The position numbers and the translations under genes were made by a program. From NCBI GenBank assembly GCA_018303185.1, contig JAGVYR010000066.1:29553-93552 (forward strand): DNA of 64,000 nucleotides. Direction: 5' to 3'. This DNA comes from Candidatus Woesearchaeota archaeon. GTDB taxonomy: Archaea > Nanobdellota > Nanobdellia > Woesearchaeales > GW2011-AR4. Under the pieces are notes generated by a model. The model ran no database searches and was not told the DNA's origin. It saw nothing but the letters and a program-made list of their open reading frames with translations. The first letter of the stretch is position 1. Each line of letters opens with the position of its first letter. This document shows positions 1 to 62,229 of this stretch, one piece after another.

Positions 1-967
1 CAGCGAAATGCTCAATCAAGTGCAGCGGCTTCGGATAATAGACGCCGGTGTTTATGCCCCTGCTGCCAAGTTTTTCAATGATATTTTCCCTGCCAATGCC
101 AAATTCATTATTTATCCTTATTGTATATTGGTGGAACACATGCTTTGCCCCATCGCCTGCTGACGGTGTTATTATTCCCTTTACGCCTTTCAGCCCCTTT
201 GTCAATTTTGCTGCAATCTCAATCCGTTTGCTTGTTATGAAGTCAGCCTTTTTCAGCTGCTCAAGCAGTATTGCTGCGGCAATATCCGTCATCCTGTAGT
301 TATATCCCAGCCCTGAATATTCATAATTTGTCATTTTAGAGCGGCCGTGCTGCCTCATAAGCCTTGCCTTTTCCGCAAATCCCTCATTGCTTGTGGTGAG
401 CATTCCTCCTTCTCCCGCGGTTATGTTCTTGGTCGCGTAAAATGAGAAAGAGGAGATATCCGCAAAATTGCCCGCTTTCTTTCCTTTGTATTCAGCATTC
501 ACGGACTGGGCAGCATCGTCAACCAGCACAAGATTATTTTCTTTTGCTATCTTATTTAATGAATCATAATCGCACGGGTTTCCGTACAGATCAACTGCAA
601 GTATCGCCTTTGTTTTCCTGGTTATTTTCTTTTTAACTTCTTCCGGATTGATGTTGAAAGACTCCTCCTTTATGTCGGCGAAAATGGGCTTTGCGCCCTG
701 CATAAGGATTGTATTTGCAGTGGCTATGAAAGTGAATGGCGTTGTTATAACCTCGTCTCCCGGCTTTATCCCTGCCGCAAAAATGGCAGAATGAAGGGCA
801 GAAGTGCCGCTGTTTGTTGCCACGGCAAATCTTGTGCCGCAGAGCCTTGCGAACTTTGCCTCTGCTTCCGCGACTTTCGGCCCTTGCGCTATTGTCCCTG
901 ACTTCAGGACTGAAACAACAGCATTTATCTCCTCTTCCCCTATGAAGGGCTTAGATATCGGTATCAT
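1..967 (-). CDS. DegT/DnrJ/EryC1/StrS-family sugar aminotransferase, 3'-partial (runs off the window start)
   Basis: Reverse-strand translation from the ATG at 967 gives MIPISKPFIGEEEINAVVSVLKSGTIAQGPKV...NSGTSALHSAIFAAGIKPGDEVITTPFTFIATAN...SFYATKNITAGEGGML...GYNYRMTDIAAAIL. These are classic DegT motifs. It is missing from the ORF track because its stop lies outside the window. Confidence 0.75.
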   Translation of the reverse strand, partial: MIPISKPFIGEEEINAVVSVLKSGTIAQGPKVAEAEAKFARLCGTRFAVATNSGTSALHSAIFAAGIKPGDEVITTPFTFIATANTILMQGAKPIFADIKEESFNINPEEVKKKITRKTKAILAVDLYGNPCDYDSLNKIAKENNLVLVDDAAQSVNAEYKGKKAGNFADISSFSFYATKNITAGEGGMLTTSNEGFAEKARLMRQHGRSKMTNYEYSGLGYNYRMTDIAAAILLEQLKKADFITSKRIEIAAKLTKGLKGVKGIITPSAGDGAKHVFHQYTIRINNEFGIGRENIIEKLGSRGINTGVYYPKPLHLIEHFA

Positions 968-1550
968 TTTTCCTTTTGGAAGTTATTTTTTCCCCGCACT
1001 TTCCGCAGTTGAGAATAAGAGCGCTGCCTTTTTCCTCAATGGAAATTATTTTTTCCCCGCATGTGCATACATAACCCTGGTGTCTTGCAGGATTTCCGTA
1101 AACAAGCTCATAGTCTGCAACATTTTTCGTGACAACAGAGCCTGCCCCTACCATTGCATTCTTTCCGATTGTGATGTCCGGCAATATGACTGAGCGGGCC
1201 CCTATTGAAGCGCCTTTTTTTACAAGAATTCGGCCGCATTTCCAGTCTCTTTCCCCTCTCAGCTTTCCTTCTTTGGTTGTCGCCCTTGGGTTTTTGTCAT
1301 TTGTCAAAACGACATGCGGGCCTATGAAAACTCCGTCCTCTATTGTAGTTCCATGATAGATTGAAGAATTGTTCTGTATCTTGCAGCTGCTGCCTATCTT
1401 TACACCAGTATCTATGTAGACGTTCTTTCCGAGAATGCAGTTGCTGCCTATGGAAGCGCCTTCCCTCACCTGCGAGAAATTCCACACCTTCGTGCCCTCC
1501 CCGATTCCCGCCTTTTCAGACACTTCCGCGGTCTCATGTACCTGTGCCAT
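951..1550 (-). CDS. Left-handed beta-helix (hexapeptide-repeat) sugar N-acetyltransferase (PglD/WbpD-like) with C-terminal zinc-ribbon
   Basis: Hexapeptide repeats (IGEGTKVWNFSQVREGASIGSNCILGKNVYIDTGVKIGSSCKI...). The C-terminal CTCGEKI...NCGKCGEKI is a duplicated CxxC pair. Confidence 0.7.
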   Translation of the reverse strand: MAQVHETAEVSEKAGIGEGTKVWNFSQVREGASIGSNCILGKNVYIDTGVKIGSSCKIQNNSSIYHGTTIEDGVFIGPHVVLTNDKNPRATTKEGKLRGERDWKCGRILVKKGASIGARSVILPDITIGKNAMVGAGSVVTKNVADYELVYGNPARHQGYVCTCGEKIISIEEKGSALILNCGKCGEKITSKRKNDTDI

Positions 1551-1601
1551 AGCAGTAGGGGATAGAAATAGGGCTTTTAAAAGGTTTGTTTTTTAGGGCA
1601 T

Positions 1602-2651
1602 CTACTTAATCTGCTCAGAAAACTTCCTGAGGTCGTAATTGACCATTATTTTTACCAGATCCTTGAACTTCGTCTTTGCTTCCCATCCCAGCTTTTTCTT
1701 TGCCTTGGACGCATCTCCCTGCAGGAAATCGACTTCAGCCGGCCTGAAATATCTCTGGTCAACTTCAATAATAACTTCGCCGGTCTTTTTGTTTATCCCC
1801 TTTTCATCTTTCCCTTTGCCTTTCCATTCAATATCTATGCCCACTTCCCTGAAAGACAACTCTGCAAATTCCCTTACTGAATGCGTCTCGCCTGTGGCTA
1901 TGACAAAATCTTCCGGAGACTTCTGCTGCAGCATAAGCCATATCGCCTCAACATATTCTTTTGCGTAGCCCCAGTCCCTTCTTGCATTGAGATTTCCAAG
2001 GAAAAGCTTCTTGTCCAGCCCCAGCTTTATTTTCGCCACCTGCTGGGTGATTTTCTTCGAGACGAAATTTTCGCCCCTTCTCTCAGACTCATGGTTGAAA
2101 AGGATCCCATTGCATGCAAACATGTTATATGCTTCACGGTAGTTGGTTGTTATCCAGTGCGCATACAGCTTTGCTATTCCGTAAGGGCTTCTTGGATGGA
2201 AAGGCGTCTTTTCCGTCTGTGGAGTTTCCTGCACAAGCCCGTAAAGCTCGCTTGTCGAGGCATTGTAGAATTTGGCCCTTCCTGTCATGTCCAGAACCTT
2301 TGTGGCCTCAAGAATCCTCAGTGTTCCAAGTGCATCCGCGTTTGCCGTGTATTCAGGAACCTCAAATGATACCTGAACATGGCTTTGGGCTGCAAGGTTG
2401 TATATCTCCTCGGGACTCGTCTGCTTTAATATCTTCAGTATCGAGCTTGAATCTGTCATGTCCCCGTAATGCAGCTTGAGGTTGCTTGACTTTTCATGGG
2501 CAAAGTCAAAAATGCTGCTGAGCCTTGCCCTGTTGAAAGAGCTTGACCTTCTTACAATTCCATGGACCATATAGCCCTTGTTGAGAAGGAGTTCTGCAAG
2601 GTATGAGCCGTCCTGCCCGGTAATTCCTGTTATCAGTGCTGTCTTGGTCAT
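1602..2651 (-). CDS. gmd: GDP-mannose 4,6-dehydratase
   Basis: [40 protein letters not shown]. The N-terminal Rossmann region and downstream SDR YxxxK region are typical of Gmd. Confidence 0.85.
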
Positions 2652-2652
2652 T

Positions 2653-3813
2653 TTATTTCGGCAAAACCTCCCTGAATGATTTTACCACATAATCCACGTC
2701 TTCGCCGCTTAGGAATTGGTGAACTCCTATATAAAACCCGTTGTCGCTGGCATATTCCGCATTTGGCAGCTTTCTTTCGTACTGCTTCTTCATGTGCATG
2801 TATGCCGGCTGCCTTGTGGGTATGCAGTGGAACAGCGGCCTTGTCTGGATGCCTCTTTTCTCCAGTTCCACTGTCAGCTTTTTCCTGCTTATTGCCTGCG
2901 GCTTCTTTATCAGGAGCGGGTAGGCAAGATAGCTGTAATTCCCGGAATGTTCCGGAAGCTGGAGGATATGGTCATATTTTCTCAGCCCGTCATTAAGCAC
3001 TCTGACATTTTCCTGGCGCTTCTTCAGTATCAGGCCTGCTTTCTTTATCTGGGCAAGCGCAAATGCCGCCTGGAATTCCATTGCCTTGAAATTGTACCCT
3101 ATAAGGTCGTGCTTAAACCTCAGTTCGCAGTTTCCCTCCGCCCTGCTTTCGTCGTCTATCATCTCGCCGTTGACTTTTATCCTTTTCACAAGCTCCATTA
3201 TCTCCCTGTCGCTCGTATTGATGGCTCCAAGCTCCCCAGCCTGTATGTTGTGCGAGACATAGAATGAGAATATCGAAGCGTCAGAAAGGCTCCCGGCCAT
3301 CTTTCCCTTGTAAACGCTGCCGTTTGATTCTGCAGCGTCTTCGATGACCCTGCAGCCGTATTTTTTTGCCATCGCGTTTATGCTGTCCATATCGGCAGTA
3401 AACCCCATAAGATGGACAGGCACTGTGAGTTTTGTATCGGGATTTTTTTCAAAAAACTCCGCCATTTTATCTGCGTCTATGCAGTAATTGTCCATCCTTA
3501 TGTCGGCAAATGCAGGCTCAAGCCTGTTGTGCACTATCGCATTTACAGTCGCATTATATGTCAGCGGCGTGGTAAGCACCTTGCTCCCGTCTTTGATGCC
3601 ATACTTGTGCTTTACAGCAAATATTGCTGCAATAAGCGCAGATGTGCCGGAGTTTGTGACGACGGAGAATTTGGTGCCTATGTACTTTGCCCATTCCTCC
3701 TCAAAGCGCCTGACAAACTTGCCCTCTGAAATCCAGTTCGAGTCCATAATTTCCTCTATGTAATCCCTTTCTGTTTTGTCAAGCCTGAAATTGCCGACTG
3801 TTATTTTGCGCAT
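2653..3813 (-). CDS. DegT-family aminotransferase, possibly GDP-perosamine synthase-like (adjacent to gmd)
   Basis: [15 protein letters not shown]..., [16 protein letters not shown].., PLP-enzyme fold. The gene pairing with gmd is the classic per arrangement. Confidence 0.6.
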
Positions 3814-3845
3814 TGTTTCCGGATATTTGCCTTGTTTTTTAAATG

Positions 3846-5378
3846 TTATTGGCTGGCTGGAATAAAATGGTAGATTTCTATATTTGTCGGCTCTGCCTTG
3901 CCATCAAGCCCGTATCCCTGACTGAAAAACCTGAGGAGGCTTCCGTCAGGGTCTGTATATTTTGAGTTGAAGAGTACAAGATAGGCGCTCTTGCCCCGAA
4001 TTTCGTCCCTGTCTATTTCGCCGGCATTGGCAACTCCCTTTATCCCTTTTGATTCCATGCATCCCAACAAATCCCTGCTGGCAAAGCATTCCTTGTCATG
4101 GTAATAGGCAAGAGAATATATTGAATAAGGCGTGTTTACATACACTAAGTCTTCTTCAGCCATGTTTTTGTCAAGGTATTCCGAAACAGATTTCCAGTCC
4201 TCTTTGTTCCTGAAGCTGAAATCTATGGAAAGAATGGCGACCGACAGGATTGTTATGGCAAGTATTGCTGCAGTTCCAAGAGGCTTTTTCATTGAAGAAA
4301 TTGAGCGGGCTGACAGCATTATGAATGGTGCAAGAGAGTATATGAAATACCTTATTACATAAGTCGGCTGCAATACCTGTGAAGCCGTGAAAAAAATCAG
4401 CATCGGCAAAATGAGCCACCCGAAAAGCACCGCTGTATTGATATCAATTTTTCCGGACTTTCTGTATTCACAGTATTCATTGTAAAGAAGCCTCAATAAA
4501 AGGAATGCAAAAATCGCGCAAAGAGCAATTCCGGCAGCAAGTGAAAGGGCGGTTTTTGTGGTGCCCGCTGAAAAGAAATAGAATGCCTTAACAAGGTCTT
4601 TTATCCCGGGAATGGGAATCCATGACGTTTTTGAGAAGCTGTTTAGGGAGGGCAGCAGAAAATAATAGAAAGGAAGGGCTGCAGCTCCCACCAATGACTG
4701 TGCAATTATCCATTGAACTGCTCTTTTGTAAGCCTTAAGCGCTGCAACATAGGAAAAAAATATCATGTTCTGCGCTATCAGCATCACAGGAGCCAAAGGA
4801 TGCGTTAAAAGAAACATAAGCGTGAATATGCCGTAAAGGGCGAGGTTTTTCTTCTCAGGCTCCTTTAAGTAGCTTATGAAAAAGTAGAATGACAAAGCAG
4901 AGAGAAGAAACAGCATTGCATAAGACCTTGCCTCCTGGGAGTAGGATACATGGAAAGGCGACACTAAAACAATGGCCGTTGATATTAACGCCGCCTTTCT
5001 TTCAAAAAGCCTGTCAGCCATGAAAAATAAGGCTGCTGCAGATAATGCGCCTATCAAAGCCGATAATGACCTCGCTGCAAATTCAGACATTCCGAAAGCA
5101 GCCATCCACTGATGCAGCATAATATGGTAAAAAGGGAGATAAGAGTTTGCCTGTGCATTCTTAAAAACCTCTAAAACGCTGCCTGCAGAGTCAGAATAAA
5201 CTGTAACTCCCTCATCAATCCAGAAATTCTCGTAAGAGATGTTAATGCTCCTTATTAGAAAAGCGGCAGTGAATATAACCAGCAATAGCAGGATTAGCTT
5301 TTTCCTTTTTTCCATCCCCTCACCTTCACCATTGATTTGCCTGTGTGGATATATAAACGTTTTCATGATGTTTCGCAT
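3846..5378 (-). CDS. GT-C fold membrane glycosyltransferase (ArnT/PMT_2, GT39/GT83-like)
   Basis: N-terminal TM helix plus IDEG acidic motif in the first loop, about 11 predicted TM helices, and a C-terminal soluble domain. Confidence 0.6.
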   Translation of the reverse strand: MRNIMKTFIYPHRQINGEGEGMEKRKKLILLLLVIFTAAFLIRSINISYENFWIDEGVTVYSDSAGSVLEVFKNAQANSYLPFYHIMLHQWMAAFGMSEFAARSLSALIGALSAAALFFMADRLFERKAALISTAIVLVSPFHVSYSQEARSYAMLFLLSALSFYFFISYLKEPEKKNLALYGIFTLMFLLTHPLAPVMLIAQNMIFFSYVAALKAYKRAVQWIIAQSLVGAAALPFYYFLLPSLNSFSKTSWIPIPGIKDLVKAFYFFSAGTTKTALSLAAGIALCAIFAFLLLRLLYNEYCEYRKSGKIDINTAVLFGWLILPMLIFFTASQVLQPTYVIRYFIYSLAPFIMLSARSISSMKKPLGTAAILAITILSVAILSIDFSFRNKEDWKSVSEYLDKNMAEEDLVYVNTPYSIYSLAYYHDKECFASRDLLGCMESKGIKGVANAGEIDRDEIRGKSAYLVLFNSKYTDPDGSLLRFFSQGYGLDGKAEPTNIEIYHFIPASQ

Positions 5379-5441
5379 TAATAACCCATAGAAAGATTAT
5401 TAAAGAAAGATAAGGAGCCTTAAACCGTTTTTGGGGCTAAA

Positions 5442-6221
5442 ATGGGGAATAAAGGCGATAAAACGGCATATGTCTGTGTTCACTCAAGGAAGGAAAATTT
5501 AAGTTTTCCAAAAAAGCTTCCCGGAAAGAAAAAATCGGTGTCGGTCATACTTGCCACGCTGAATGAGGAAGGCAACATAAGAAAGCTCGTTTCCGCAATC
5601 AGGAGCAGCCTGAAAGGCGTTAGCCATGAAATAATAATAGTGGATGACAACTCAGGAGATAAAACCCCGGAAATAATGGACAGGCTGGCATCTGAAAGCG
5701 TCATTGCCCTGCACAGGTACGGCAAAAAGGGCATCTTCTCTGCAATAACCGACGGGATTAAGCTCTCAAGGGGCGAGTTCATTGTCATAATGGATGCTGA
5801 CTTTTCACATTCGCCGGAATGCCTTAAGCAGTTCCTGAAGCATAAGAATGACTATGACATCATATCAGCTTCAAGGTTCGTCAAAGGCGGCGGGATAAAG
5901 GCTCCTTTAAGCCGCGTTCTCGCTCCCTATCTTTTCAGTATGGTCGCTAAAGTAATTATGGGAATAAAGGTAAAAGACCTCACCAACGGCTACCATATGA
6001 TAAGGAAGTCGTGCTTTGACCGCATTAAGTTCAGGCACAAAAGCGTGTGGGGCGAGTTTGACCTTGAAATCTTCTACAGGAGCGCTAAAATGGGCTTCCG
6101 CATACTTGAGATACCTTACACATACATATACAGGACACATGGCGCATCCAAATCGCAAAGCTTATTAAAATACGGCTTTATATATTTCAGGCGAGCTTTG
6201 CAGCTGAGGCTGGGACTATGA
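5442..6221 (+). CDS. Family 2 glycosyltransferase (dolichyl/polyprenyl-phosphate sugar synthase-like)
   Basis: SVILATLNEEGNI...IIIVDDNSGDKT...IMDADFSH (GT-A fold with DxD region). Confidence 0.75.
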   Translation: MGNKGDKTAYVCVHSRKENLSFPKKLPGKKKSVSVILATLNEEGNIRKLVSAIRSSLKGVSHEIIIVDDNSGDKTPEIMDRLASESVIALHRYGKKGIFSAITDGIKLSRGEFIVIMDADFSHSPECLKQFLKHKNDYDIISASRFVKGGGIKAPLSRVLAPYLFSMVAKVIMGIKVKDLTNGYHMIRKSCFDRIKFRHKSVWGEFDLEIFYRSAKMGFRILEIPYTYIYRTHGASKSQSLLKYGFIYFRRALQLRLGL

Positions 6222-7294
6222 AGATTCCGTTTGCTGATCCTCTTCTTGGTGATGAAGAGCTTAATAATGTGATTGACGCTGTCAAATCCACATGGATTGG
6301 CGCGCTTGGAAAGTATTTAGGCCAGTTTGAAAAGGACTTTTCCGGATATTTGGGCTCTAAGCATGCTTCCACAGTAACGAACGGCACGGTCGCAATCCAT
6401 GCGGCGCTTCTCGCGCTTGGAATAAAGCCCGGGGACGAAGTCATTGTGCCGGATATGACCTTTGTAGCCACTGCAAACGCAGCCGCTTTTATCGGCGCTA
6501 AAGTGGTGCTTGCAGATGTCGAAAAAGACACATGGAACATTGACCCAAAGGAAGTTGCCAAAAAGATAACAAAAAAGACAAAAGCCATAATCCCTGTCCA
6601 CCTTTACGGCCATCCTGCGGATATGGATCCCATAATGGAGCTTGCGCGCAAGAATGGCCTCTTCGTGGTTGAGGACTGTGCAGAGGCTGCAGGAGCAGAG
6701 TATAAAGGCAGGAAAGTTGGCACGATAGGAGACATAGGATGCTTCTCTTTCCATGCCAGCAAGCTAATCACAACAGGAGAGGGCGGCATGTGCGTTACTG
6801 GCAGGAAAGAGCTTTGGGAAAAGATAGAGCACCTCAAGAACCACGCGATGGATGAGAAAAGAAGGTACTGGCATGACATGATAGGCTATAATTACCGCAT
6901 GACGAACATACAGGCCGCGATAGGGGTTGCCCAGCTCAGGAAGCTTGACAGGATAATAGAGAAAAAAAGGCGGATTGCCGGAAAGTACATGGATTTTCTT
7001 GAAGGCGTGGGCGACATAAGGTTCCCTGCAGAGAAGGAATGGGCAAAGAATGTATTCTGGTTCTTCTCAATGCTGTCCTCAAAAAAAGATGCAATTGAAA
7101 TTGCACTGAAAAACAGAGGCATAGAGACAAGGCCTTTCTTCTGGCCAATGCATGAGCTGCCCATGTTTAGGAGTTCGGAGAAATTTCCCGTTTCCTCGAT
7201 GCTTCACCGCGAGGGAATAAGCCTTCCGTCCTCTGCTCTTCTGGAGGAAGGCCATATAAGGGAAGTATGCAGAGTTATAAAATCGGTTTTCTGA
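6218..7294 (+). CDS. DegT/DnrJ/EryC1/StrS-family sugar aminotransferase
   Basis: HASTVTNGTVAIHAALLALGIKPGDEVIVPDMTFVATANAA..., FSFHASKLITTGEGGM, GYNYRMTNIQAAIG. Confidence 0.85.
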   Translation: MKIPFADPLLGDEELNNVIDAVKSTWIGALGKYLGQFEKDFSGYLGSKHASTVTNGTVAIHAALLALGIKPGDEVIVPDMTFVATANAAAFIGAKVVLADVEKDTWNIDPKEVAKKITKKTKAIIPVHLYGHPADMDPIMELARKNGLFVVEDCAEAAGAEYKGRKVGTIGDIGCFSFHASKLITTGEGGMCVTGRKELWEKIEHLKNHAMDEKRRYWHDMIGYNYRMTNIQAAIGVAQLRKLDRIIEKKRRIAGKYMDFLEGVGDIRFPAEKEWAKNVFWFFSMLSSKKDAIEIALKNRGIETRPFFWPMHELPMFRSSEKFPVSSMLHREGISLPSSALLEEGHIREVCRVIKSVF

Positions 7295-9977: not shown

Positions 9978-10042
9978 AGCCTGATTTTAGGCTTATAAAA
10001 AGCTTTTTGTTGTGTTTGGGAGAATTGTGTTCATGCGGTGAG

Positions 10043-10678
10043 TCACTTCTTCCTCAGAAGGAACATCTCATCAACATTGTCGTCATAAAGGTACTTGAAT
10101 TTCTCTCTCTTCACCATTTCCAGTCCGGGAAAGATCTGGAGGTATTCTCCGGCAAAATCCGTCTTCCACAGGAGATTCTCGTGCCCGCGGTAATTTACCT
10201 CAGTACATTCCGGCGTGAAGTATTCAAAGCCCCAGATATATTCCTTTGCTACCCTGCATATCTCCTTCAGGGCTCTCTGTATGTCCTTCGGGCTTATGTG
10301 GATCAGCACCCTTGATGTGAACACCATATCAAAGCTTCTGTCAGGGAAAGGAATCTTGAATATATTGCCCTGCACGATGTTTGCAGAAGGAACGGCTTTC
10401 TTGGCGACTTCTATTGCGTGGGGATTAAGCTCGACAGCGCTCAGGTTCCTGAATCCCATTTTTGACAGCTCTATAAGCTGGTTTCCGGAATTCGGGCCTA
10501 TCTCAAGTATCTTCATTGACCTGTCAAGCTTTCCGAGAAAACGCCTGTTCATCTCAGTTCTTGTGATGCCGAAATCCTTCATGTACAGCTCATCCATGGA
10601 CTCATTCTGGTATTTGTTCCTGTCAGTGTAAATGGCTCCAAACTCACCTTTCCACACTTTCATCTGGTCTGTTTCCAT
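10043..10678 (-). CDS. Class I SAM-dependent methyltransferase
   Basis: ILEIGPNSGNQLIELSKMGFRNLSAVELNPHAIEVAKK (motif I), followed by downstream motif II/III. Confidence 0.7.
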   Translation of the reverse strand: METDQMKVWKGEFGAIYTDRNKYQNESMDELYMKDFGITRTEMNRRFLGKLDRSMKILEIGPNSGNQLIELSKMGFRNLSAVELNPHAIEVAKKAVPSANIVQGNIFKIPFPDRSFDMVFTSRVLIHISPKDIQRALKEICRVAKEYIWGFEYFTPECTEVNYRGHENLLWKTDFAGEYLQIFPGLEMVKREKFKYLYDDNVDEMFLLRKK

Positions 10679-10774
10679 GATGGCTTTTGCACTCTGATTT
10701 CGTTTATATATTTTTTGATGGTGTTATCCGGTTTTATTCCATAAAGCTTTTATATCCAGCGCGAGGACCATGCA

Positions 10775-11839
10775 GTGGTCGTTAAGCTTCGGCTTATGCT
10801 CATTGGGGAAACAAGAATGATTGACGAAAAAAAGCTCAAAAAGCTGTTCATGGCGAAAACTGTCCTTATAACAGGCGGGACAGGCTATCTCGGCAGGCAC
10901 ATCACTTCTGAAATACTTAAATATGAGCCCCACAGCATAAGGCTCCTGAGCAGGGATGAAGTGAAGCACCACAACATGCAGGAGCAGTTCGGCCACAATA
11001 TTAAGCTTAGGCATTTTGTCGGGGATGTCAGGGACTATGAAAGGATGGAAAAGGCGGCAAAGGGAGCCGATATTGTCATACATGCCGCCGCCCTCAAAAG
11101 GCTGGACATGATTGAGTACAATGTTGAAGAGTCTGTCAAGACAAATGTAATAGGCACATTGAATGTAGTGAGGGCATGCCTTGCAAACAATGTGGAGAAG
11201 GCAGTATTTATCTCGACTGACAAGGCCTGCTCGCCTGTAAATACATACGGCGCGTGCAAGTTCCTTGCCGAGCGCATCTTCTCTGAAAGCAACAGGAATA
11301 AAGGGGCGTGCAGGACAATATTCACAGTGGTAAGGTACGGCAACGTGCTTGAAAGTACCGGCTCTGTCATACCTTTCTTCGAATCGAGGATAAAGAAGGG
11401 AGAGCCGATAATGCTGACTGACAGGAGGATGACGCGCTTCATAATAACGCCGCAGCAGGCTGTGGAGCTTATATTCAAGAGCCTCATATACTGCAAGGGC
11501 GGCGAAGTCTTCGTGCCTAAGCTGGATTCGTTCAGGATTACAGACCTTATAACCATACTCAAAAGAAAGCACAATTCCGGCATGGAAGTGGTAATATGCG
11601 GCCTGAGGCCGGGAGAAAAGATAAATGAATGGATGCTGAACGACGCTGAAGTGAGGCGCACTTACAGTTTCCAGGACATGTTCGTGATAACATCCGAAAT
11701 AAACAGGGTAAAGGGCGCGGAATATGCTGTCCACGGAAAAAAATTGTCTGAAGATTCAATGGACCATTACAGCTCAGACCAGTGCCTGCTGAGCCTGGAT
11801 GAAGCCACTAAACTGTTCAAAAAACTCGGGCTCATATAA
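10775..11839 (+). CDS. CapD/PseB/PglF-like UDP-sugar 4,6-dehydratase (polysaccharide biosynthesis protein)
   Basis: KTVLITGGTGYLGRHI...VGDVRD...ADIVIHAAALK...ISTDKACSPVNTYGACK. The true start is probably an internal Met (MIDEKK or MAKTV). Confidence 0.8.
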   Translation: MVVKLRLMLIGETRMIDEKKLKKLFMAKTVLITGGTGYLGRHITSEILKYEPHSIRLLSRDEVKHHNMQEQFGHNIKLRHFVGDVRDYERMEKAAKGADIVIHAAALKRLDMIEYNVEESVKTNVIGTLNVVRACLANNVEKAVFISTDKACSPVNTYGACKFLAERIFSESNRNKGACRTIFTVVRYGNVLESTGSVIPFFESRIKKGEPIMLTDRRMTRFIITPQQAVELIFKSLIYCKGGEVFVPKLDSFRITDLITILKRKHNSGMEVVICGLRPGEKINEWMLNDAEVRRTYSFQDMFVITSEINRVKGAEYAVHGKKLSEDSMDHYSSDQCLLSLDEATKLFKKLGLI

Positions 11840-11862
11840 TCCTTGGGCGCGGAGAATCTAAA

Positions 11863-12768
11863 TTGGATATTCTTATAACCGGTGTAAGCGGGCTGGTCGG
11901 GGGAAATTTGGCTCACGAGTATCTTGGAAAATACAATATAGCTGGGACATACAGCCAGAATAAGGTCAATATAAAGCCATGCGACGTTTTTCGGCTTGAC
12001 CTTACAAAAAAAAGCGAAGTGGATTCGGTAAAAAAGCGGTTTGATGCGGTGATACACTGCGCAGGCCCCACAAATCTTGACTACTGCGAGCAGAACAGGA
12101 ATTATGCGTATGACAACATATTCAAGGCGACTGAAAACGCCCTCAGCCTGGCAAAAAGGCACGGTTCGTTCTTTATCTTCATGTCGACCAATGCAGTGTT
12201 TGACGGGAAAAATGGGCATTATTCCGAGAAAGACACTCCAAACCCAACAAATTACTATGGGGAACTCAAGCTGCAATGCGAGCGGATGGTAGGAGAATAT
12301 GAAAATCACTGCATCTTAAGGATAATCCCTTATGGGTGGAACATACTCAACAAGACAAGCATTGCTGAATGGGTGCTTTTAAGCCTTAGGGAAAGGAAAA
12401 ATATAAACGGCTTTACAGATGCCATATTTTCGCCCATACTTGTCAACAACATGGCGGAGGCCATTGAAGAGATTTTCACTAAAAGAGTAACCGGCACATT
12501 TCATCTTGGCGGCTCTGACTCGTGCTCGAAATATGATTTTGCTGTCATGATTGCTGAGCTGGCAGGACTGGATAAATCACTGATAAAGCCCGCAAGCGCA
12601 GAGGAATTTTTTAAGGCGAAAAGAGGCCACAAGCTCGATTTGAACATCAGCAGAATCTCCAAAGCAGTTGATACGCAAATCCTCGGGACAAAAGAAGGAT
12701 TAAAGAGGTTCCTCGAGCTTGAGAAGCGGGGATACGCCAAAAGGCTCAAGGCTGCATTGGATTCATAG
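11863..12768 (+). CDS. RmlD-like NAD(P)-dependent sugar-nucleotide reductase/epimerase
   Basis: MDILITGVSGLVGGNL...VIHCAGPTNLDYCEQN...STNAVFDGKNGHYSEKDTPNPTNYYGELK (RmlD substrate-binding family). Confidence 0.7.
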   Translation: MDILITGVSGLVGGNLAHEYLGKYNIAGTYSQNKVNIKPCDVFRLDLTKKSEVDSVKKRFDAVIHCAGPTNLDYCEQNRNYAYDNIFKATENALSLAKRHGSFFIFMSTNAVFDGKNGHYSEKDTPNPTNYYGELKLQCERMVGEYENHCILRIIPYGWNILNKTSIAEWVLLSLRERKNINGFTDAIFSPILVNNMAEAIEEIFTKRVTGTFHLGGSDSCSKYDFAVMIAELAGLDKSLIKPASAEEFFKAKRGHKLDLNISRISKAVDTQILGTKEGLKRFLELEKRGYAKRLKAALDS

Positions 12769-12776
12769 CATCAGCA

Positions 12777-13460
12777 TTGTTGAAGGGAACGATGAAACAA
12801 AAAAAATTGGCTGAAAGAAGCGCTTACTGCATCATACCTGCACTGAATGAGGAAGGCACAATAAAAAAAGTTATCTCCGGCGCAAAGAAGCACGTCAAAG
12901 GGGTTATTGTAGTGGATGACGGCTCATGCGACAGGACAGCGGCCATCTCAAAAAAAAGCGGTGCCATGGTAGTAAAGCACTCAAGAAGCATGGGTTATGC
13001 GAAGAGCATAGATGACGGCATAAAATTTGCATTGAAGCGTGGCATAAAGGTGGTTGTGACGCTTGATGCTGACGGGCAGCATGATTCCAGCGACATACCT
13101 AAAATGCTGGATCTTATAGCCAAGGGCGCAGATATAGCTACAGGCACCCGGCCCTACAGGGCAAGGCTGGCAGAATACGTGTTCTCCTGGTATTCCAAAA
13201 GGAAATTAGGAATTCCTGACCCTTTGTGCGGCCTCAGGGCTTACAGGGCAGATATCTTCAGGAAATGCCGCTCAATAGAAAGGAGGTATTCCGTTGGAAC
13301 CCAGATCTTGTTTGAGGCCAAAAGGCACGGGTTTTCCATAATGCACGGGAGTATATCTTTAAATACGAGAAAAGACAGCCCAAGGTTCGGGAACAGGGTT
13401 TTTGCAAACCTCAAGATATTTTTCGGTTTGCTTAATATGGCGCTCAGATACGGATTTTGA
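12777..13460 (+). CDS. Family 2 glycosyltransferase
   Basis: CIIPALNEEGTI...VIVVDDGSCDRT...VVTLDADGQHD. Confidence 0.75.
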   Translation: MLKGTMKQKKLAERSAYCIIPALNEEGTIKKVISGAKKHVKGVIVVDDGSCDRTAAISKKSGAMVVKHSRSMGYAKSIDDGIKFALKRGIKVVVTLDADGQHDSSDIPKMLDLIAKGADIATGTRPYRARLAEYVFSWYSKRKLGIPDPLCGLRAYRADIFRKCRSIERRYSVGTQILFEAKRHGFSIMHGSISLNTRKDSPRFGNRVFANLKIFFGLLNMALRYGF

Positions 13461-13469
13461 GGGGGGATA

Positions 13470-14519
13470 ATGGAGCCAATAACGATTGACGGCAGGAAAG
13501 TCGGGGGCAATAGCCCGTGCTATATAATTGCTGAGATAGGCTCCAATTTTGACGGAAGCCTTGAGAAAGCAAAATACATGATTGACCTTGCCAAGGAATG
13601 CGGGGCTGACGCTGTAAAGTTCCAGAGCTTCAGGGCAGAGGATATAGTCTCTGAGAAAGGATTCCGGTCATTGAAAGTGGCATTCCAGTCTGCATGGAAA
13701 AAGCCCGTGATTGAAGTCTACAGGGATGCTGAGCTTCCCACTCAATGGAACGAGGAGCTGATGGCACATGCAAAGAAGAAGGGCATAACATACTTCTCAA
13801 CCCCATACGACAAAAAGAATGCTGATTACCTTGATAAGATAGGGGTTCTCGCATTCAAGATAGGCTCGGGGGACATAACATGGCTCGAGATGATAAAGTA
13901 CATATCAGGGAAGAAAAAGCCAGTGATTATAGGCTGCGGAGCAAGCACAGTTGAGGAGATTGGCGAGGCGATAGAGGCGATAAGGTCAGAAGGCAATGAT
14001 GAGATTGTATTATTGCAATGCGTAACAAATTACCCGTCATCATTCAAAAATGCGAATATCAAAGCAATGAAAAGTCTCGGTGAAAGATATAAGGTATTAT
14101 ACGGGTATTCTGACCATTCTCCCGGGCACATAGTGCCTTTGGGCGCTGTTGCTCTTGGAGCCTGCGTGATTGAAAAGCATTTCACTTACGACAAGAAAGC
14201 TCTCGGCCCGGACCATCCTTTCGCGATGGACCCTTCTGACTTCAAAGAAATGGTAAAAGCCATCAGGCTGCTGGAATCGGGGCTGGGCGATAAAAAGGAG
14301 GTGTATGACGAGGAAAAGGAAACAGTGGTCATACAAAGAAGATGCCTGAGGGCGTCAAAGAGCCTTGATGCCGGCCATGTGGTAAAGGGAGAAGACATAG
14401 AAGTATTGAGGCCGGCTCCATTGAATTCCATCTATCCAAAGCACAAGGAATCCCTTATAGGCAAAAAACTGAAGCGCTCTCTTGAAAAAGGCGATTATTT
14501 CAAAAAGGCGGATTTCTGA
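13470..14519 (+). CDS. NeuB/PseI/LegI-family nonulosonic acid (sialic-acid-like) synthase
   Basis: NSPCYIIAEIGSNFDGSLEKAKYMIDLAKECGADAVKFQSF. The C-terminal SAF domain reads VVKGEDIEVLRP. Confidence 0.85.
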   Translation: MEPITIDGRKVGGNSPCYIIAEIGSNFDGSLEKAKYMIDLAKECGADAVKFQSFRAEDIVSEKGFRSLKVAFQSAWKKPVIEVYRDAELPTQWNEELMAHAKKKGITYFSTPYDKKNADYLDKIGVLAFKIGSGDITWLEMIKYISGKKKPVIIGCGASTVEEIGEAIEAIRSEGNDEIVLLQCVTNYPSSFKNANIKAMKSLGERYKVLYGYSDHSPGHIVPLGAVALGACVIEKHFTYDKKALGPDHPFAMDPSDFKEMVKAIRLLESGLGDKKEVYDEEKETVVIQRRCLRASKSLDAGHVVKGEDIEVLRPAPLNSIYPKHKESLIGKKLKRSLEKGDYFKKADF

Positions 14520-14663
14520 TGCCTTCAAAACAGGAAAAGCCTTAATAAATGCATTGTTTTCTCATCAGTCTATAGTTAAGCAGACATGCGGAATTTATAT
14601 ATACAGAATTAAAAGACAGGTGCTTGAAATGAACATTGTCGCGATAATCCAGGCGGAAAGACC

Positions 14664-15368
14664 ATGATGAAGATACTTGGAAAGCCTATGCTCTGGTACT
14701 CGGTTGCAAGGGCAAAGGCTGCAAAATCCATAAGCCGCGTCGTAGTTGCAACAACAACAGAAGAGAGGGACAGGCCGATATTCGATTACTGCACAAAGAA
14801 CGGCATTGACTGCTACAGGGGCAGCGAACAGGATGTTCTCGACCGGTATTATCAGGCAGCAAAAATATTCAAGGCAGATACAATTGTCAGGGTGACTTCA
14901 GACTGCCCGCTTGTCGATCCAAACGTGATTGATTTGGCCCTGAAAGGGCTTAATGGGGGAAAATATGACTACGTTAAGACAGGAAAATCATGGCCCAATG
15001 GGATAGGAACCGTGGAGATAGCCGGTTTCGGGGTGCTCGAAAGAGCTTGGCGCGATGCGAAGCTTCCCGGAGAAAGGGAGCATGTCATGCCGTACATATA
15101 CACCCATCCTGAACTTTTTAAAATAAAAACAATAGATTATAAAAAAGACTGCTCAGGCATAGTGCTGTCTGTTGATACAAAGCCGCAGCTTGAGGCTGTA
15201 GCAAAAATAATCGGGGCCCTCGGAAAGGGTGGGCTGTCTTTTACAACAGCCGACATACTCGCATACCTGAAGAAAAATCCTGCTGTTTTGAAATCGCTGG
15301 AAGGGATAGGCAGGAGGGGCCCTGAGCAGTATATAAGGGACATGAAGGGCAAAGGGAAGCTGAGGTAA
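14664..15368 (+). CDS. CMP-nonulosonic acid synthetase (acylneuraminate cytidylyltransferase family)
   Basis: MMKILGKPMLWYSVARAKAAKSISRVVVATTTEE...VRVTSDCPLVDP. Confidence 0.8.
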   Translation: MMKILGKPMLWYSVARAKAAKSISRVVVATTTEERDRPIFDYCTKNGIDCYRGSEQDVLDRYYQAAKIFKADTIVRVTSDCPLVDPNVIDLALKGLNGGKYDYVKTGKSWPNGIGTVEIAGFGVLERAWRDAKLPGEREHVMPYIYTHPELFKIKTIDYKKDCSGIVLSVDTKPQLEAVAKIIGALGKGGLSFTTADILAYLKKNPAVLKSLEGIGRRGPEQYIRDMKGKGKLR

Positions 15369-15400
15369 TATTTATTGCGCCCATAGGCGGATGGCAAATC

Positions 15401-16717
15401 ATGGAAAACGACAATCTCAAGGAAGAGGCTGAAAATCTTCTCAGGGAACTTTTTCCCATAAACAGGAGCATAACAGGGAGCGGCGTCAGAAAAAGCCTTA
15501 AGATTTTAAGCAAAGTTGCTGATTTTGAGATAAAGGGGGTTCCTTCCGGAACCAAGTGCTACGACTGGGAAATCCCTCCCGAATGGGAACTGAAGGATGC
15601 ATACGTCGAGGATTCAAAGGGTAAAAGGATAATAGACATAAAGGACAGCAACCTGCATGTTATGGGATACAGCACACCTGTTGACAGGAAGGTGCCGTAT
15701 TCCGAGCTTATAGCACATATCCATACAATGAGCGATATGCCGGACGCAATCCCATACAGAACTTCATATTACGACAGGAAATTCGGGTTCTGCATGAAGC
15801 ACAGGGATTTCATCGCTCTCGACAAGAAAGAAACATACCATATGTACATAGACTCAAGCCTCAAGGAAGGCTCTCTCACCTATGGTGAGCGCATTCTGAA
15901 AGGAACCTCGGGAAAGGAGTTCATCATATCGACATACTGCTGCCATCCTTCCCTTGCAAATGACAATTTGTCAGGAATGGTTCTTTGGGTGCTGCTTCTC
16001 AGGAATTTAAGCAAAAGAAAGCTGAGGCACACTTACCGCTTTGTCATTGCGCCTGAAACAATAGGCGCGATAGCATACTGCTCGCTTAATGAAGAAGCGA
16101 TGAAGAATATTGAGGCAGGGCTTGTGATAACCACTGTCGCCGGTCCGGGGAAGAGGGGCTACAAGCGCTCTTTCATGGGCAGCAGCATCATAGACATGGC
16201 AATTGAGCATGTATTCAGGCAGAGCGGCATTGATTTCATAAGATATCCTTTTGACATACAGGGCAGCGATGAGAGGCAATTTTCCTCTCTTCCTTTCAGG
16301 ATTCCGATATGCACGATAACAAAAGACAAGTATTATGAATATCCTTATTACCACACTTCCCTTGACAATCTTGATTTCATAAAAAGCGATTGGCTTATAG
16401 AAGCGCTCGGAATATACCTTAAAGTTATAGAAAGCCTTGAGAACAGCATCGTTTATGCCCCGTTGAATCATGCGTGCGAGCCCATGCTGGGGAAGAGGGG
16501 GGCTTATCCGAAAACGGGCGGCGCGATAAACCAGAACAGGAAAGACGCAGAAAAGGATAAAAAGAGCGACCTGGACGTCATAAAATGGATTCTGTTCCTG
16601 AGCGACGGAAAAAAGACCTTGCTGGAGATATCGGAAGAAACTGGCATTGATAGTTCAAGGCTTAATGAGGCCGCTATCAGGCTTTGCAAGCTGTCGCTGC
16701 TTAAGGAAGTGAAATAA
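15401..16717 (+). CDS. Aminopeptidase-like domain protein (COG4310/DUF4910 type) with C-terminal winged-helix, polysaccharide-cluster associated
   Basis: The N-terminal region (ELFPINRSITGSGVRKSLKILS...KCYDWEIPPEWEL) is typical of this family. The C-terminal LLEISEETGIDSSRLNEAAIRLCKLSLL looks like a winged helix. Confidence 0.4.
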   Translation: MENDNLKEEAENLLRELFPINRSITGSGVRKSLKILSKVADFEIKGVPSGTKCYDWEIPPEWELKDAYVEDSKGKRIIDIKDSNLHVMGYSTPVDRKVPYSELIAHIHTMSDMPDAIPYRTSYYDRKFGFCMKHRDFIALDKKETYHMYIDSSLKEGSLTYGERILKGTSGKEFIISTYCCHPSLANDNLSGMVLWVLLLRNLSKRKLRHTYRFVIAPETIGAIAYCSLNEEAMKNIEAGLVITTVAGPGKRGYKRSFMGSSIIDMAIEHVFRQSGIDFIRYPFDIQGSDERQFSSLPFRIPICTITKDKYYEYPYYHTSLDNLDFIKSDWLIEALGIYLKVIESLENSIVYAPLNHACEPMLGKRGAYPKTGGAINQNRKDAEKDKKSDLDVIKWILFLSDGKKTLLEISEETGIDSSRLNEAAIRLCKLSLLKEVK

Positions 16718-16734
16718 AATATGGAGGCGGACCA

Positions 16735-17526
16735 ATGAGGGTGCTCGTAATAGGAGGAAACCATAGGAGGCATCTTTATTTCATGGACCGGATAAGCCAG
16801 AGCCATGAACTATGCGGAGCTATAATTGAACAGAGGGAGAAGTTTATGCCACAGCCTCCCGAAGGGATAATGGAAGCTGACAGGCATAATTTCATCAGGC
16901 ATTTTACAAATAGGGAAGCGGCTGAAAAGAAATATTGCGGGGATAAGGGCGTTCCAAAATGTGAAATCCTTGAAGTAACCAAAGAAAGCCTGAACAGCGA
17001 TGCCGCCATTGGTTTCATAAAGCGCGCAAAGCCTGATGCCGCATTGGTTTTCGGAAGCGACCTTATTGCTCAATCGCTCATTGATGCCCTGCCTAAGGAT
17101 ACAATCAACATGCACCTTGGCCTTTCCCCCAGATACCGTGGTGCAGCAACTTTGTTCTGGCCCTTCTATTTCCTTGAGCCGAATTATGCGGGCAGCACTT
17201 TCCATTATCTTGTGTCGGAACCGGATGCCGGGAACGTTGTGCACCAAGTTGTTCCCCAGCTTAAGAAGGAAGACGGCATACATGATGTTGCCTGCAGGAC
17301 TTTGCTGGAGTCGGCAGAGCAGGCCATAAAGCTGCTCGACATCATAAAGAGCGGCAAAAGATGGAAAACATTCAGCCAGAAAGGCACGGGAAAAAATTTC
17401 CTGTTCAGGGACTTCAGGCCTGAGCACTTAAGGGTGATTTATAACCTGTTTGATGATGATATTGTAAAGCGATTTATGGAAGGCAGCTTAAAGCCGGGAG
17501 AGCCTAAGCTGTGCAGGCAGTTTTGA
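16735..17526 (+). CDS. Formyltransferase-domain protein (Fmt/PurN-like N-terminal domain)
   Basis: ALVFGSDLIAQSLIDALPKDTINMHLGLSPRYRGAATLFWPF matches the formyltransferase HxSLLPxxRG-type motif. Confidence 0.5.
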   Translation: MRVLVIGGNHRRHLYFMDRISQSHELCGAIIEQREKFMPQPPEGIMEADRHNFIRHFTNREAAEKKYCGDKGVPKCEILEVTKESLNSDAAIGFIKRAKPDAALVFGSDLIAQSLIDALPKDTINMHLGLSPRYRGAATLFWPFYFLEPNYAGSTFHYLVSEPDAGNVVHQVVPQLKKEDGIHDVACRTLLESAEQAIKLLDIIKSGKRWKTFSQKGTGKNFLFRDFRPEHLRVIYNLFDDDIVKRFMEGSLKPGEPKLCRQF

Positions 17527-28860: not shown

Positions 28861-28861
28861 T

Positions 28862-29950: not shown

Positions 29951-29951
29951 T

Positions 29952-32440: not shown

Positions 32441-32698
32441 ATGGAAAAATTGGAAATAACAAGTATGAGTTCAAGAGGGCAGGTAGTTATTCCTTTAGAC
32501 ATTAGAGAACAGCTTGGATTAAAGGAAGGTGAGAAATTTGTTGTTGTTGGAGAAGATGATACAGTTATCTTGAAAAAAGTAACCATGCCTTCCTTCAAAA
32601 ACTTTGATAAATTAATTCAAAGAACACAGCAGTTTGCAAAAGAAAAAGGAATAACTCCAGTCGATGTTAAGAGTGCCATAAAGAGAGCTAGAAAATGA
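32441..32698 (+). CDS. AbrB/SpoVT-family antitoxin
   Basis: SSRGQVVIPLDIREQLGLKEGEKFVVV (swapped-hairpin barrel motif). Confidence 0.7.
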   Translation: MEKLEITSMSSRGQVVIPLDIREQLGLKEGEKFVVVGEDDTVILKKVTMPSFKNFDKLIQRTQQFAKEKGITPVDVKSAIKRARK

Positions 32699-62183: not shown

Positions 62184-62229
62184 AATATTGCAGAGCGTAG
62201 TTTCTACTTATAAGTGATGTAAATAATAA

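Follow-up and report, generated by a model that had tools for sequence, protein, structure and literature searches.

A candidate pseudaminic acid-lineage nonulosonic acid cassette with an RmlD-like reductase in a Woesearchaeota archaeon

The DNA considered here is a 64-kb stretch (the window) of contig JAGVYR010000066.1 from a Candidatus Woesearchaeota archaeon, a groundwater member of the DPANN. Its first 17,526 nucleotides, at the left edge of a surface-glycan super-locus that spans about 40 kb, hold two sugar modules, A (1-7294) and B (7295-17526), not one. Module B is best read as a nonulosonic acid (NulO) cassette of the pseudaminic acid (Pse) lineage with an RmlD-like reductase. A first-pass annotation had described the whole region as a single, complete-looking NulO module. 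A module for NulO synthesis, activation and tailoring does lie at about 7.3-17.5 kb, but it shares the region with a second pathway, and it is not complete as assembled: the CMP-NulO synthetase gene is broken, a methyltransferase gene contains a TGA codon, and the UDP-sugar hydrolase step has no homology match. All the gene types named in that annotation were recovered with Pfam and NCBIfam models (a dehydratase, a reductase, three DegT-fold proteins, an acetyltransferase, NeuB, a cytidylyltransferase, a formyltransferase, a DUF4910 protein and methyltransferases). To these can be added a GDP-mannose 4,6-dehydratase (Gmd; 1602-2651), a PMT_2 membrane glycosyltransferase of the GT-C fold, two family 2 glycosyltransferases (GT2) and a 650-aa protein with a GT-B glycosyltransferase domain.

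Nonulosonic acids cap cell surfaces and govern how hosts, phages and partner cells recognise the cell. Few are known from archaea, among them legionaminic acid (Leg) in Halorubrum and Pse in Methanobrevibacter smithii. DPANN archaea live attached to other cells, and no paper on NulOs in this group was found in the literature. Genes of the window were taken from a listing of open reading frames (ORFs) together with Pfam and NCBIfam scans, the latter taking in ORFs 951-22876.

The nonulosonic acid operon

The core of module B is a plus-strand operon in which a PseB-like dehydratase gene is followed by genes for an RmlD-like reductase, a small GT2, NeuB, a cytidylyltransferase, a DUF4910 protein and a formyltransferase. 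The genes are separated by 9-32 nt, except for 110 nt ahead of the cytidylyltransferase start:

10817-11839, plus strand: PseB-type (inverting) UDP-GlcNAc 4,6-dehydratase; the ORF opens at 10775
11863-12768, plus strand: RmlD-like short-chain dehydrogenase/reductase (SDR), proposed C4 ketoreductase
12792-13460, plus strand: small GT2 of 222 aa with an ArnC/DPMS-like catalytic domain
13470-14519, plus strand: NeuB-family nonulosonic acid synthase
14629-15368, plus strand: CMP-NulO synthetase (cytidylyltransferase), broken
15401-16717, plus strand: DUF4910/DUF2172/HTH_47 aminopeptidase-like protein, proposed sugar N-deacylase
16735-17526, plus strand: formyltransferase, 3' partner of the DUF4910 gene

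A scan of the operon for bacterial promoters and terminators, an approach ill-suited to archaea, returned counts no higher than the shuffle expectation.

By its motifs and best matches the dehydratase appears to be of the PseB type and not a Pen, FnlA or PglF enzyme. It scores 302 bits on PF02719 and 336 bits on the PseB model TIGR03589, short of the cutoff of 407.75. Its best match in the PDB is FlaA1 of Helicobacter pylori (2gn4; 246 bits), followed by Pen (230 bits), FnlA (214 bits) and PglF (5bju; 123-129 bits). The motifs STDKA and YGACK are those of FlaA1, whereas Pen (6bwc) has SSNAA and FnlA/CapE have MGISK, with Met for Tyr. The model for retaining 4,6-dehydratases of the LegB type, TIGR04180, gave only 63.7 bits against a cutoff of 475.

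The next gene product is an SDR with the YxxxK motif in the form YGELK, and it matches PF04321 at 152 bits and the rmlD model at 142 bits (cutoff 224). Its identity with Pal of the Bacillus thuringiensis Pen/Pal route was considered and rejected: its PDB matches are RmlD/MAT2B-type chains only, none being Pal-like at E <= 1e-5, and the two-SDR route is also ruled out by the dehydratase, which has STDKA where Pen has SSNAA.

The NeuB homologue is, on sequence grounds, a bona fide NulO synthase, as had been proposed in the first pass, and the alternative of a KDO-8-P (3-deoxy-D-manno-octulosonate 8-phosphate) synthase fails. It aligns to positions 1-240 of the 241 of PF03102 (282.9 bits), carries a SAF domain (PF08666, 31.7 bits) and scores 318 bits on the NeuB model TIGR03569 (cutoff 400) and 299.9 bits on the PseI model TIGR03586 (cutoff 340.25). 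The nearest solved structure is PseI of Campylobacter jejuni (8h2c; 218 bits), ahead of SpsE (180 bits) and Neisseria meningitidis NeuB (161 bits).

Pfam scans of the main ORFs of the window, and NCBIfam scans of ORFs 951-22876, gave no match to PseH, to any GCN5-related N-acetyltransferase (GNAT) or to PseG. Likewise, no main ORF of the 64 kb carries a full-length Epimerase_2 domain (PF02350), the hallmark sought for NeuC/LegG, and the lack of that enzyme in the window had been noticed from the start. The lone PF02350 match (32.5 bits, profile positions 134-346) lies inside the 650-aa GT-B protein. The absence of NeuC/LegG is expected and leaves no gap, because the dehydratase points to a PseB-type (L-altro) route; the step that wants an enzyme is that of a PseG-type UDP-sugar hydrolase, and a homology search of the window proteins yielded none.

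The small GT2 (PF00535, 72 bits) is the best candidate for this step. Its AlphaFold2 model (pLDDT 92.9) has ArnC as best fold match (TMq 0.77) and also resembles GpgS and the catalytic domains of DPMS and GtrB. According to the model, it ends in a single C-terminal helix (residues 202-220) and is without the transmembrane (TM) helix pair of ArnC, GtrB and DPMS. Its homologues, 1621 at E <= 1e-10, are all 205-227 aa long. On this model the TM-less protein may be a UDP-sugar hydrolase, although a peripheral polyprenyl-phosphate transferase would be equally compatible, and this assignment is the weakest step of the reading developed below.

Conservation of the cassette

A metagenome scan with a profile built from an alignment of the RmlD-like subfamily returned more than 511 relatives, 80 of which were kept for locus counts; their loci were annotated from stop-to-stop ORFs with BLAST or Pfam labels. 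The RmlD-like and neuB genes are the tightest conserved pair and often overlap. Of the 46 loci that extend far enough downstream, 39 have NeuB no more than 2.6 kb after the RmlD-like gene, and a PseB-like gene precedes it by no more than 2.6 kb in 32 of 48. Among the 31 loci of at least 9 kb, 23 carry a CMP synthetase.

All of the RmlD-like protein's nearest relatives (L084-L087; identities from 62% down to about 41%) are encoded in the order RmlD-like, small GT2, NeuB, in most cases together with a PseB-like gene, a CMP synthetase, a DUF4910 protein, a GT-B protein of 580-660 aa and methyltransferases but no DegT in the cassette. L084, L170, L171 and L173 each hold a self-contained set of five genes (PseB-like, RmlD-like, GT2, NeuB and CMP synthetase), and on the stretch that was read no DegT was called in any of them. 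The small GT2 stands between or beside RmlD-like and NeuB in L084-L087, L090-L097, L170, L171 and L173. When relatives of the small GT2 itself were sampled at 42-45% identity (a Betaproteobacteria metagenome-assembled genome, or MAG, and other contigs), RmlD-like and NeuB were alongside in three of four loci.

In a tree of NeuB sequences, made by neighbour joining (NJ) only, the RmlD-linked synthases form one clade with a bootstrap of 100/100, three DegT-linked sequences included, and stand apart from the other DUF4910-associated NeuBs. The first-pass annotation had called for such a phylogeny; what it delivers is a distinct RmlD-linked clade, whereas the placement of that clade by PseI has a bootstrap of just 29/100. 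Among genome loci anchored on DUF4910, DegT accompanies 2 of 11 RmlD-linked NeuBs and 21 of the 36 remaining ones (Fisher p = 0.036). A strict mutual exclusion of RmlD-like and DegT was considered on this basis and holds only in part, as DegT is present in 11 of the 31 related loci of at least 9 kb.

The RmlD-like/NeuB cassette is thus widespread and apparently undescribed: the searches made for literature on it, or on biosynthesis genes for trideoxy NulOs, found nothing. An RmlD-like reductase tied to its own NeuB clade on hundreds of public contigs offers a testable candidate pathway to the 7-hydroxy (trideoxy) class of NulOs.

Several further genes recur in these loci. In distant RmlD-like/NeuB cassettes a GT4 gene (Glycos_transf_1, 360-395 aa) directly follows NeuB and replaces the small GT2:

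L104, 11006-12127: GT4 after NeuB
L106, 10961-12127: GT4 after NeuB
L154, 11208-12290: GT4 after NeuB
L165, 10994-12178: GT4 after NeuB
L111, 11000-12130: GT4 after NeuB

A GFO/IDH/MocA oxidoreductase is frequent in the distant cassettes, with or without DegT. A B12-binding radical SAM gene recurs beside the small GT2 or NeuB (L170:7680-9176, L085:11612-13090, L172:5423-6970) and might have a part in modifying the NulO, for example by C-methylation. Pairs resembling the HisH/HisF glutamine amidotransferase and cyclase lie inside two related cassettes (L170:2597-4120, L171:11595-13089) and would fit the formation of an N-acetimidoyl group.

The DUF4910-formyltransferase unit

The DUF4910 protein has all three domains of its family above cutoff (PF16254 at 280, PF09940 at 113 and PF16221 at 48 bits) and matches CA_C2195 of Clostridium acetobutylicum (PDB 3k9t) at 376 bits over residues 9-436. 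It shares this architecture, and the setting in a NulO locus, with CA_C2195 and with Cj1295 of C. jejuni. Cj1295 is needed for Pse bearing an N5-(di-O-methylglyceroyl) group and has been proposed to cleave the C5 acetamido group for re-acylation (PMC3068675). The family was tied to NulO loci already in 2010 and 2014, and NeuB/SpsF-type neighbourhoods were described in the 2014 structure paper (PMC3068675, PMC4000134). In the window, however, the protein is partnered by a formyltransferase and not by glyceroyl or other acyl-modifying genes. To our knowledge, biochemical activity has been shown for no member of the DUF4910 family yet.

The formyltransferase (PF00551, 40 bits) carries the motif NMH..SPRYRG (N-x-H...SPRYRG), aligned to the formyltransferase domain of ArnA, its best PDB match at 33 bits. 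WbkC, a GDP-perosamine formyltransferase, comes next and the Pse formyltransferase PseJ matches weakly (21.8 bits); all three are distant relatives. WbkB of Brucella, a 284-aa protein with no reported domain, was weighed as a possible DUF4910 homologue, which would connect the pair with GDP-perosamine formylation. In 23 of 80 DUF4910-anchored genome loci a formyltransferase with 50-60% identity lies directly downstream of DUF4910, and NeuB is found within 10 kb of DUF4910 in 39 of the 80. Both genes had been singled out as unusual extras. They are indeed present but are no oddities, given the published link between DUF4910 and NulOs and the conservation of the formyltransferase as its partner. 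DUF4910/Cj1295 is now placed in a defined two-gene unit, for which we infer an exchange of N-acetyl for N-formyl, and the N-formylation and methylation forecast in the first pass are reasonable predictions.

The nearest relatives of the pair, at about 54-60% identity, are from Anaerolineales. In the GTDB species set no DUF4910 match near 99% was found, the best being 54%, again in Anaerolineales. The closeness of an archaeal pair to these sequences suggests lateral transfer. In two Anaerolineales loci (L088:9001-11153 and L089:5183-7377), the genes for DUF4910 and a formyltransferase of 263 aa overlap and make up a two-gene unit.

An N-formylated NulO, 5-N-formyl-legionaminic acid, is known in archaea from Halorubrum sp. 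PV6 (Zaretsky et al. 2018; PMC6137143). There, too, a formyltransferase gene lies in the cluster, and the sugar is carried by surface glycoproteins; the NulO of the window is predicted from genes. The Halorubrum Leg route runs through LegB, LegC, LegH, LegG, LegI and LegF, including the NeuC-type LegG, whereas the window has a PseB-type dehydratase, an RmlD-like reductase and no LegG.

Candidate genes for methylation and transfer

Upstream of the operon, on the minus strand, module B holds three further genes:

7295-8032, minus strand: S-adenosylmethionine (SAM)-dependent methyltransferase with an in-frame TGA at 7831-7829
8025-9977, minus strand: 650-aa protein with a C-terminal TagF/BFO_1060-like GT-B domain
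10043-10678, minus strand: Pse-biosynthesis-associated SAM methylase

The methylase matches TIGR03587, a hypothetical-equivalog model, over its full length at 187.1 bits, above the cutoff of 112.05. The 650-aa protein matches Glyphos_transf (41.7 bits), Epimerase_2 (32.5 bits) and TIGR04396 (50.5 bits; cutoff 125). On NF046086, the BFO_1060 family model, it scores 61.1 bits (E = 1e-16) against a cutoff of 200, over the C-terminal 150 residues only. It has conserved QHGxxHP and KxHP motifs, while its N-terminal 430 residues gave no match and a D/E-D/E-G motif was not found in it. A profile of the protein retrieves relatives in many NulO loci. BFO_1060 is the orthologue of a genetically proven Pse/Leg transferase of Tannerella forsythia (PMC5420450). 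The transferases of that species, Tanf_01245 and TFUB4_00887, resemble the 650-aa protein in the GT-B/TagB-like domain, the HP motifs and the location in a NulO locus, but its 61 bits are far under the family cutoff. It is likely to be a NulO transferase, a candidate user of CMP-NulO outside the BFO_1060 family proper. The idea that it might be a hidden NeuC was set aside: only its C-terminal Rossmann half weakly resembles Epimerase_2, TagF/BFO_1060 matches better, and the HP motifs are conserved. That idea is further weakened by the occurrence of the family in NulO loci that contain DegT.

A proposed route and its alternatives

The reading favoured here, with a probability of about 0.5, is a route of the Pse lineage with a 4-reductase standing in for the aminotransferase and acetyltransferase. 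Its product would be a 5-acylamido-3,5,9-trideoxy (7-OH) NulO, in which N-acetyl is then changed for N-formyl. The proposal draws on the gene identities, catalytic motifs, conserved synteny and separate NeuB clade described above, and the substrates and products named in it are all predicted ones. The PseB-type dehydratase would convert UDP-GlcNAc to UDP-2-acetamido-2,6-dideoxy-beta-L-arabino-hexos-4-ulose. The RmlD-like SDR would reduce C4 in place of the PseC and PseH steps, giving a UDP-6-deoxy-L-HexNAc of the altro type (UDP-6-deoxy-L-AltNAc or its C4 epimer). UDP might then be removed by the small GT2. NeuB would join the free sugar to phosphoenolpyruvate, forming a 5-acetamido-3,5,9-trideoxy (7-hydroxy) NulO of the Pse/fusaminic lineage, which the cytidylyltransferase would activate. 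DUF4910 may strip the N5-acetyl group and the partner formyltransferase add N-formyl; the SAM methylases would O-methylate the NulO, and the TagF/BFO_1060-like GT-B would move it onto a glycan.

The classical Pse pathway of Helicobacter and Campylobacter (PseB, PseC, PseH, PseG, PseI and PseF) resembles module B in the type and the STDKA/YGxxK motifs of the first enzyme and in having a CMP synthetase and the TIGR03587 methylase, and its synthase PseI is the nearest solved relative of the NeuB here. It differs in having PseH and PseG, whereas here the RmlD-like and small GT2 genes sit between dehydratase and synthase. The PseB, PseC and PseI matches in the window are all below the NCBIfam equivalog cutoffs, and its NeuB belongs to a separate clade.

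The one known 3,5,9-trideoxy NulO, by the account relayed in two later papers, is the 5-acetimidoylamino-3,5,9-trideoxy-gluco-nonulosonic acid of Fusobacterium nucleatum 25586, which occurs with 6-deoxy-L-AltNAc (Vinogradov 2017, via PMC7371886 and PMC12940168). As 6-deoxy-L-AltNAc is exactly what PseB and a 4-reductase would produce, F. nucleatum provides a chemical precedent for the route. Its sugar is of the same predicted class (mono-amino, 7-hydroxy, 9-deoxy, from 6-deoxy-L-AltNAc), and the HisH/HisF-like genes of related cassettes fit its acetimidoyl group. The N-acyl group predicted in the window is formyl instead, and no description of the F. nucleatum genes for this sugar was found in the literature searched.

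An enzymatic parallel is offered by WbvB and WbvR of Vibrio cholerae O37, which Kneidinger and colleagues reportedly found in 2003 to act in the conversion of UDP-GlcNAc to UDP-L-RhaNAc. These, too, are said to be a PseB-family dehydratase and an RmlD-family C4 reductase acting on UDP-4-keto-6-deoxy-L-HexNAc. The window has no WbvD-type 2-epimerase, however, and its product would feed the NeuB synthase. Compared with L-FucNAc-type routes, the dehydratase of the window has the catalytic Tyr of PseB where the solved FnlA and CapE have Met.

Three genes of module A bear on the alternatives:

3846-5378, minus strand: PMT_2 membrane glycosyltransferase, GT-C, ArnT/PMT-like (PF13231, 40 bits)
5442-6221, plus strand: GT2, polyprenyl/dolichyl-phosphate sugar synthase-like (PF00535, 89 bits; weak matches to dolichyl-phosphate hexose transferase, AglJ and ArnC)
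6218-7294, plus strand: aminotransferase DegT2 (PF01041, 411 bits)

Several observations weigh against the 4-reductase route. The small GT2 is most like polyprenyl-phosphate glycosyltransferases (ArnC, DPMS and GtrB) and is missing from most distant cassettes, which have GT4 after NeuB instead; for these two reasons its assignment as a hydrolase is weak. The CMP synthetase is truncated in this assembly. About a third of the long related loci carry DegT, sometimes adjoining the RmlD-like gene (L101, L111, L115), and DegT2, at a distance of 3.5 kb from the cassette, could take the part of PseC. The low bootstrap by PseI leaves the position of the NeuB clade loose. Finally, in Anaerolineales the DUF4910-formyltransferase pair occurs away from any NeuB, either alone (L089) or in a polysaccharide locus that has none (L088). 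The pair is therefore portable and not exclusive to NulOs, and its substrate could be a different amino sugar, for example the one predicted for module A.

The DegT genes, both that of the window and those in a third of the related cassettes, make a diamino, Pse-type product a serious rival. In such a scheme, the PseB-like enzyme would make the 4-keto sugar, DegT2 would serve as PseC, and the formyltransferase would work in the manner of PseJ on the UDP-4-amino sugar, yielding a 7-N-formyl Pse, a derivative of the canonical 5,7-diamino type. A GT-fold enzyme would remove UDP before NeuB and the CMP synthetase act, and the RmlD-like enzyme would divert part of the 4-keto intermediate to UDP-6-deoxy-L-AltNAc, a second building block. 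DegT2 is the sole PseC/LegC-like candidate, scoring 358 bits on the LegC family (cutoff 420) and 289.9 bits on PseC TIGR03588 (cutoff 423.5), with its Lys in SFHASK, and it could belong to either module. Its homologues (40-47% identity) lie inside the related cassettes L034, L092 and L145. The match to PseJ, weak as it is, the TIGR03587 methylase above cutoff and PseI as the nearest solved synthase agree with the scheme. However, DegT2 is translationally coupled (4-nt overlap) to the dolichyl-phosphate-sugar-type GT2, in a unit by PMT_2 that is divergent from the minus-strand Gmd genes and outside the NulO operon. Most cassettes, including the closest (L084), lack DegT, and it is RmlD-like and NeuB that form the tightest pair. 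The formyltransferase is conserved beside DUF4910 and not beside DegT, and PseH and PseG are missing from the window. A diamino product is accordingly judged unlikely, if worth keeping in view.

The resemblance of the small GT2 to ArnC, DPMS and GtrB suggests a different division of labour, similar to that of the Arn enzymes. The RmlD-like enzyme and the small GT2 would make a dolichyl-phosphate 6-deoxy-L-HexNAc that PMT_2 transfers outside the cell. The formyltransferase and DUF4910 would formylate and deformylate a 4-amino sugar linked to a nucleoside diphosphate or lipid, in the manner of ArnA and ArnD, and this sugar might be the GDP-sugar of module A. A separate minimal NulO branch would consist of NeuB and the CMP synthetase, with the hydrolase encoded elsewhere. 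The ArnA domain and WbkC as best PDB matches of the formyltransferase are in line with this, as are the PMT_2 genes beside cassettes with the GT2 (in the window, in L087 and in L173) and the DUF4910-formyltransferase pairs without NeuB in Anaerolineales. But the small GT2 family is uniformly short and without the TM helices of its structural relatives, and its position between RmlD-like and NeuB is kept in loci free of PMT_2 (L084, L085, L086, L170, L171). NeuB would also be left without a supply of precursor, though it follows 39 of 46 RmlD-like genes. We regard an Arn-like carrier as distinctly improbable.

The 4-reductase route can be extended to a broader claim, which we put forward as doubtful. 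The five-gene operon would be a complete, undescribed route to mono-amino 3,5,9-trideoxy NulOs, with a GT-A-fold enzyme as substitute for PseG, widespread in DPANN archaea, bacteria of the Candidate Phyla Radiation (CPR), Omnitrophota and others. It would supply the missing pathway of F. nucleatum, and DUF4910 with the formyltransferase would be a portable unit for turning N-acetyl into N-formyl.

Interrupted genes in this assembly

The cytidylyltransferase matches only generic CTP_transf_3/KdsB-like models and no PseF equivalog. The remaining ORF (14664-15368, 234 aa) aligns to PF02348 from profile position 19 (74 bits). Alignment with the near-identical contig L001 reveals a 25-bp deletion between 14654 and 14655, by which part of the MNIVAIIQARMGSTRLPGK N-terminus, and so part of the nucleotide-binding motif ARMGSTRLPGK, is lost and the frame is shifted. 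An intact synthetase of 254 aa is present on 8 contigs, and the 234-aa form solely on the MAG contig; for the deletion, the choice is between a rare variant and an error of assembly.

In the methyltransferase gene at 7295-8032, alignment with L001 and L002 locates the TGA, which is TGC (Cys) on 9 other contigs encoding an intact 245-aa form. The TGA variant, which one Logan contig (SRR2090155) shares, probably represents a nonsense polymorphism. Decoding as selenocysteine was considered unlikely and set aside, since only one codon differs (TGC or TGA), its position is not catalytic, and Cys is encoded on most contigs.

The two lesions, together with the failure to find a further gene in the window that matches CTP_transf_3 over its full length, could mean that the NulO module is decaying or switched off in this genome and that no activated NulO is made. 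Against this, the 8 contigs with an intact synthetase are independent, so that an error of assembly or consensus, or a rare variant, is as likely, and no other gene of the module is damaged, those compared across contigs being identical or nearly so. We consider decay of the module very unlikely.

Module A: a predicted sugar derived from GDP-mannose

Besides the three genes given above, module A consists of a minus-strand group around gmd:

1-957, minus strand: DegT-fold aminotransferase, 3' part, running off the window start; last gene of the Gmd operon
951-1550, minus strand: hexapeptide-repeat (left-handed beta-helix, LbH) acetyltransferase of the Gmd operon
1602-2651, minus strand: Gmd (MBS3132153.1)
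2653-3813, minus strand: DegT-fold protein with His188 for the lysine that binds pyridoxal phosphate (PLP)

Gmd exceeds the cutoff of its equivalog model (TIGR01472, 585.7 bits; cutoff 415). The acetyltransferase matches PF00132 at 96.6 bits and the NeuD/PglB/VioB family at 100 bits (cutoff 160.8). The DegT-fold protein at 2653-3813 scores 293 bits on PF01041 and 225 and 227 bits on RfbH and PseC, both below cutoff. In an alignment, its His188 falls on the PLP lysine of the other two DegTs, that of the aminotransferase at 1-957 being kept in SFYATK. Replacement of this lysine by His is, as we take it from the work of the Holden and Liu groups, the mark of PLP-dependent 3-dehydratases of the ColD/E1 (RfbH) type.

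Gmd would turn GDP-mannose into GDP-4-keto-6-deoxymannose, from which the ColD-like DegT may strip the 3-OH. The lysine-bearing DegT would aminate C4, and the hexapeptide transferase would N-acetylate the amino sugar. A pathway to a sugar of the GDP-4-acetamido-3,4,6-trideoxyhexose type is the simplest explanation for a His188 protein that has Gmd upstream and both the acetyltransferase and a lysine-bearing DegT downstream. The adjoining GT2 and PMT_2 GT-C suggest delivery on a dolichyl-phosphate carrier.

The first-pass annotation had counted the acetyltransferase and the DegT aminotransferases among the NulO enzymes. Module A accounts for the acetyltransferase and two DegTs, so that these, lying in the Gmd operon and including the one with His188, drop out of the NulO route. 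A trap for annotation is evident here: Gmd, DegT and acetyltransferase genes that adjoin NeuB do not necessarily serve NulO synthesis.

The surrounding locus

The exact proteins of the window are named Candidatus Woesearchaeota archaeon at NCBI (MBS3132153-MBS3132217), on a contig of 112,832 bp. An archaeal source also fits the Cdc6/Orc1 gene at 40754-41824. Contigs that are nearly identical were recovered from Rifle-type aquifer metagenomes. As far as about 40 kb the glycan locus goes on to encode GT4s, nucleotidyltransferases, SDRs, two Wzx-type flippases, a UDP-glucose dehydrogenase and an adenosine 5'-phosphosulfate (APS) kinase, after which Cdc6/Orc1 and seryl-tRNA synthetase (SerRS) genes follow. 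Just past module B, in the same locus, lies a flippase gene:

17559-19055, minus strand: Wzx/MATE-like polysaccharide flippase (PF01943, 90.5 bits; PF13440, 75.6 bits)

The APS kinase gene (31297-31836, plus strand) suggests sulfated glycans. Five sizeable ORFs of the glycan locus (619, 206, 362, 356 and 279 aa) have no Pfam match; they lie at 19073-20932 (minus strand), 28240-31022 (minus strand) and 33370-34209 (plus strand), and the 619-aa ORF has no NCBIfam match either. Two patches have a GC content of 0.36-0.37 against about 0.44: 32001-34000, which holds a PIN-domain gene, and 62001-64000, which holds a DUF772 transposase-like gene (62255-63217). An ORF resembling polypeptide deformylase (51770-52399, minus strand; PF01327, 39.6 bits) is unexpected in an archaeal genome, because archaea normally do not formylate the initiator Met.

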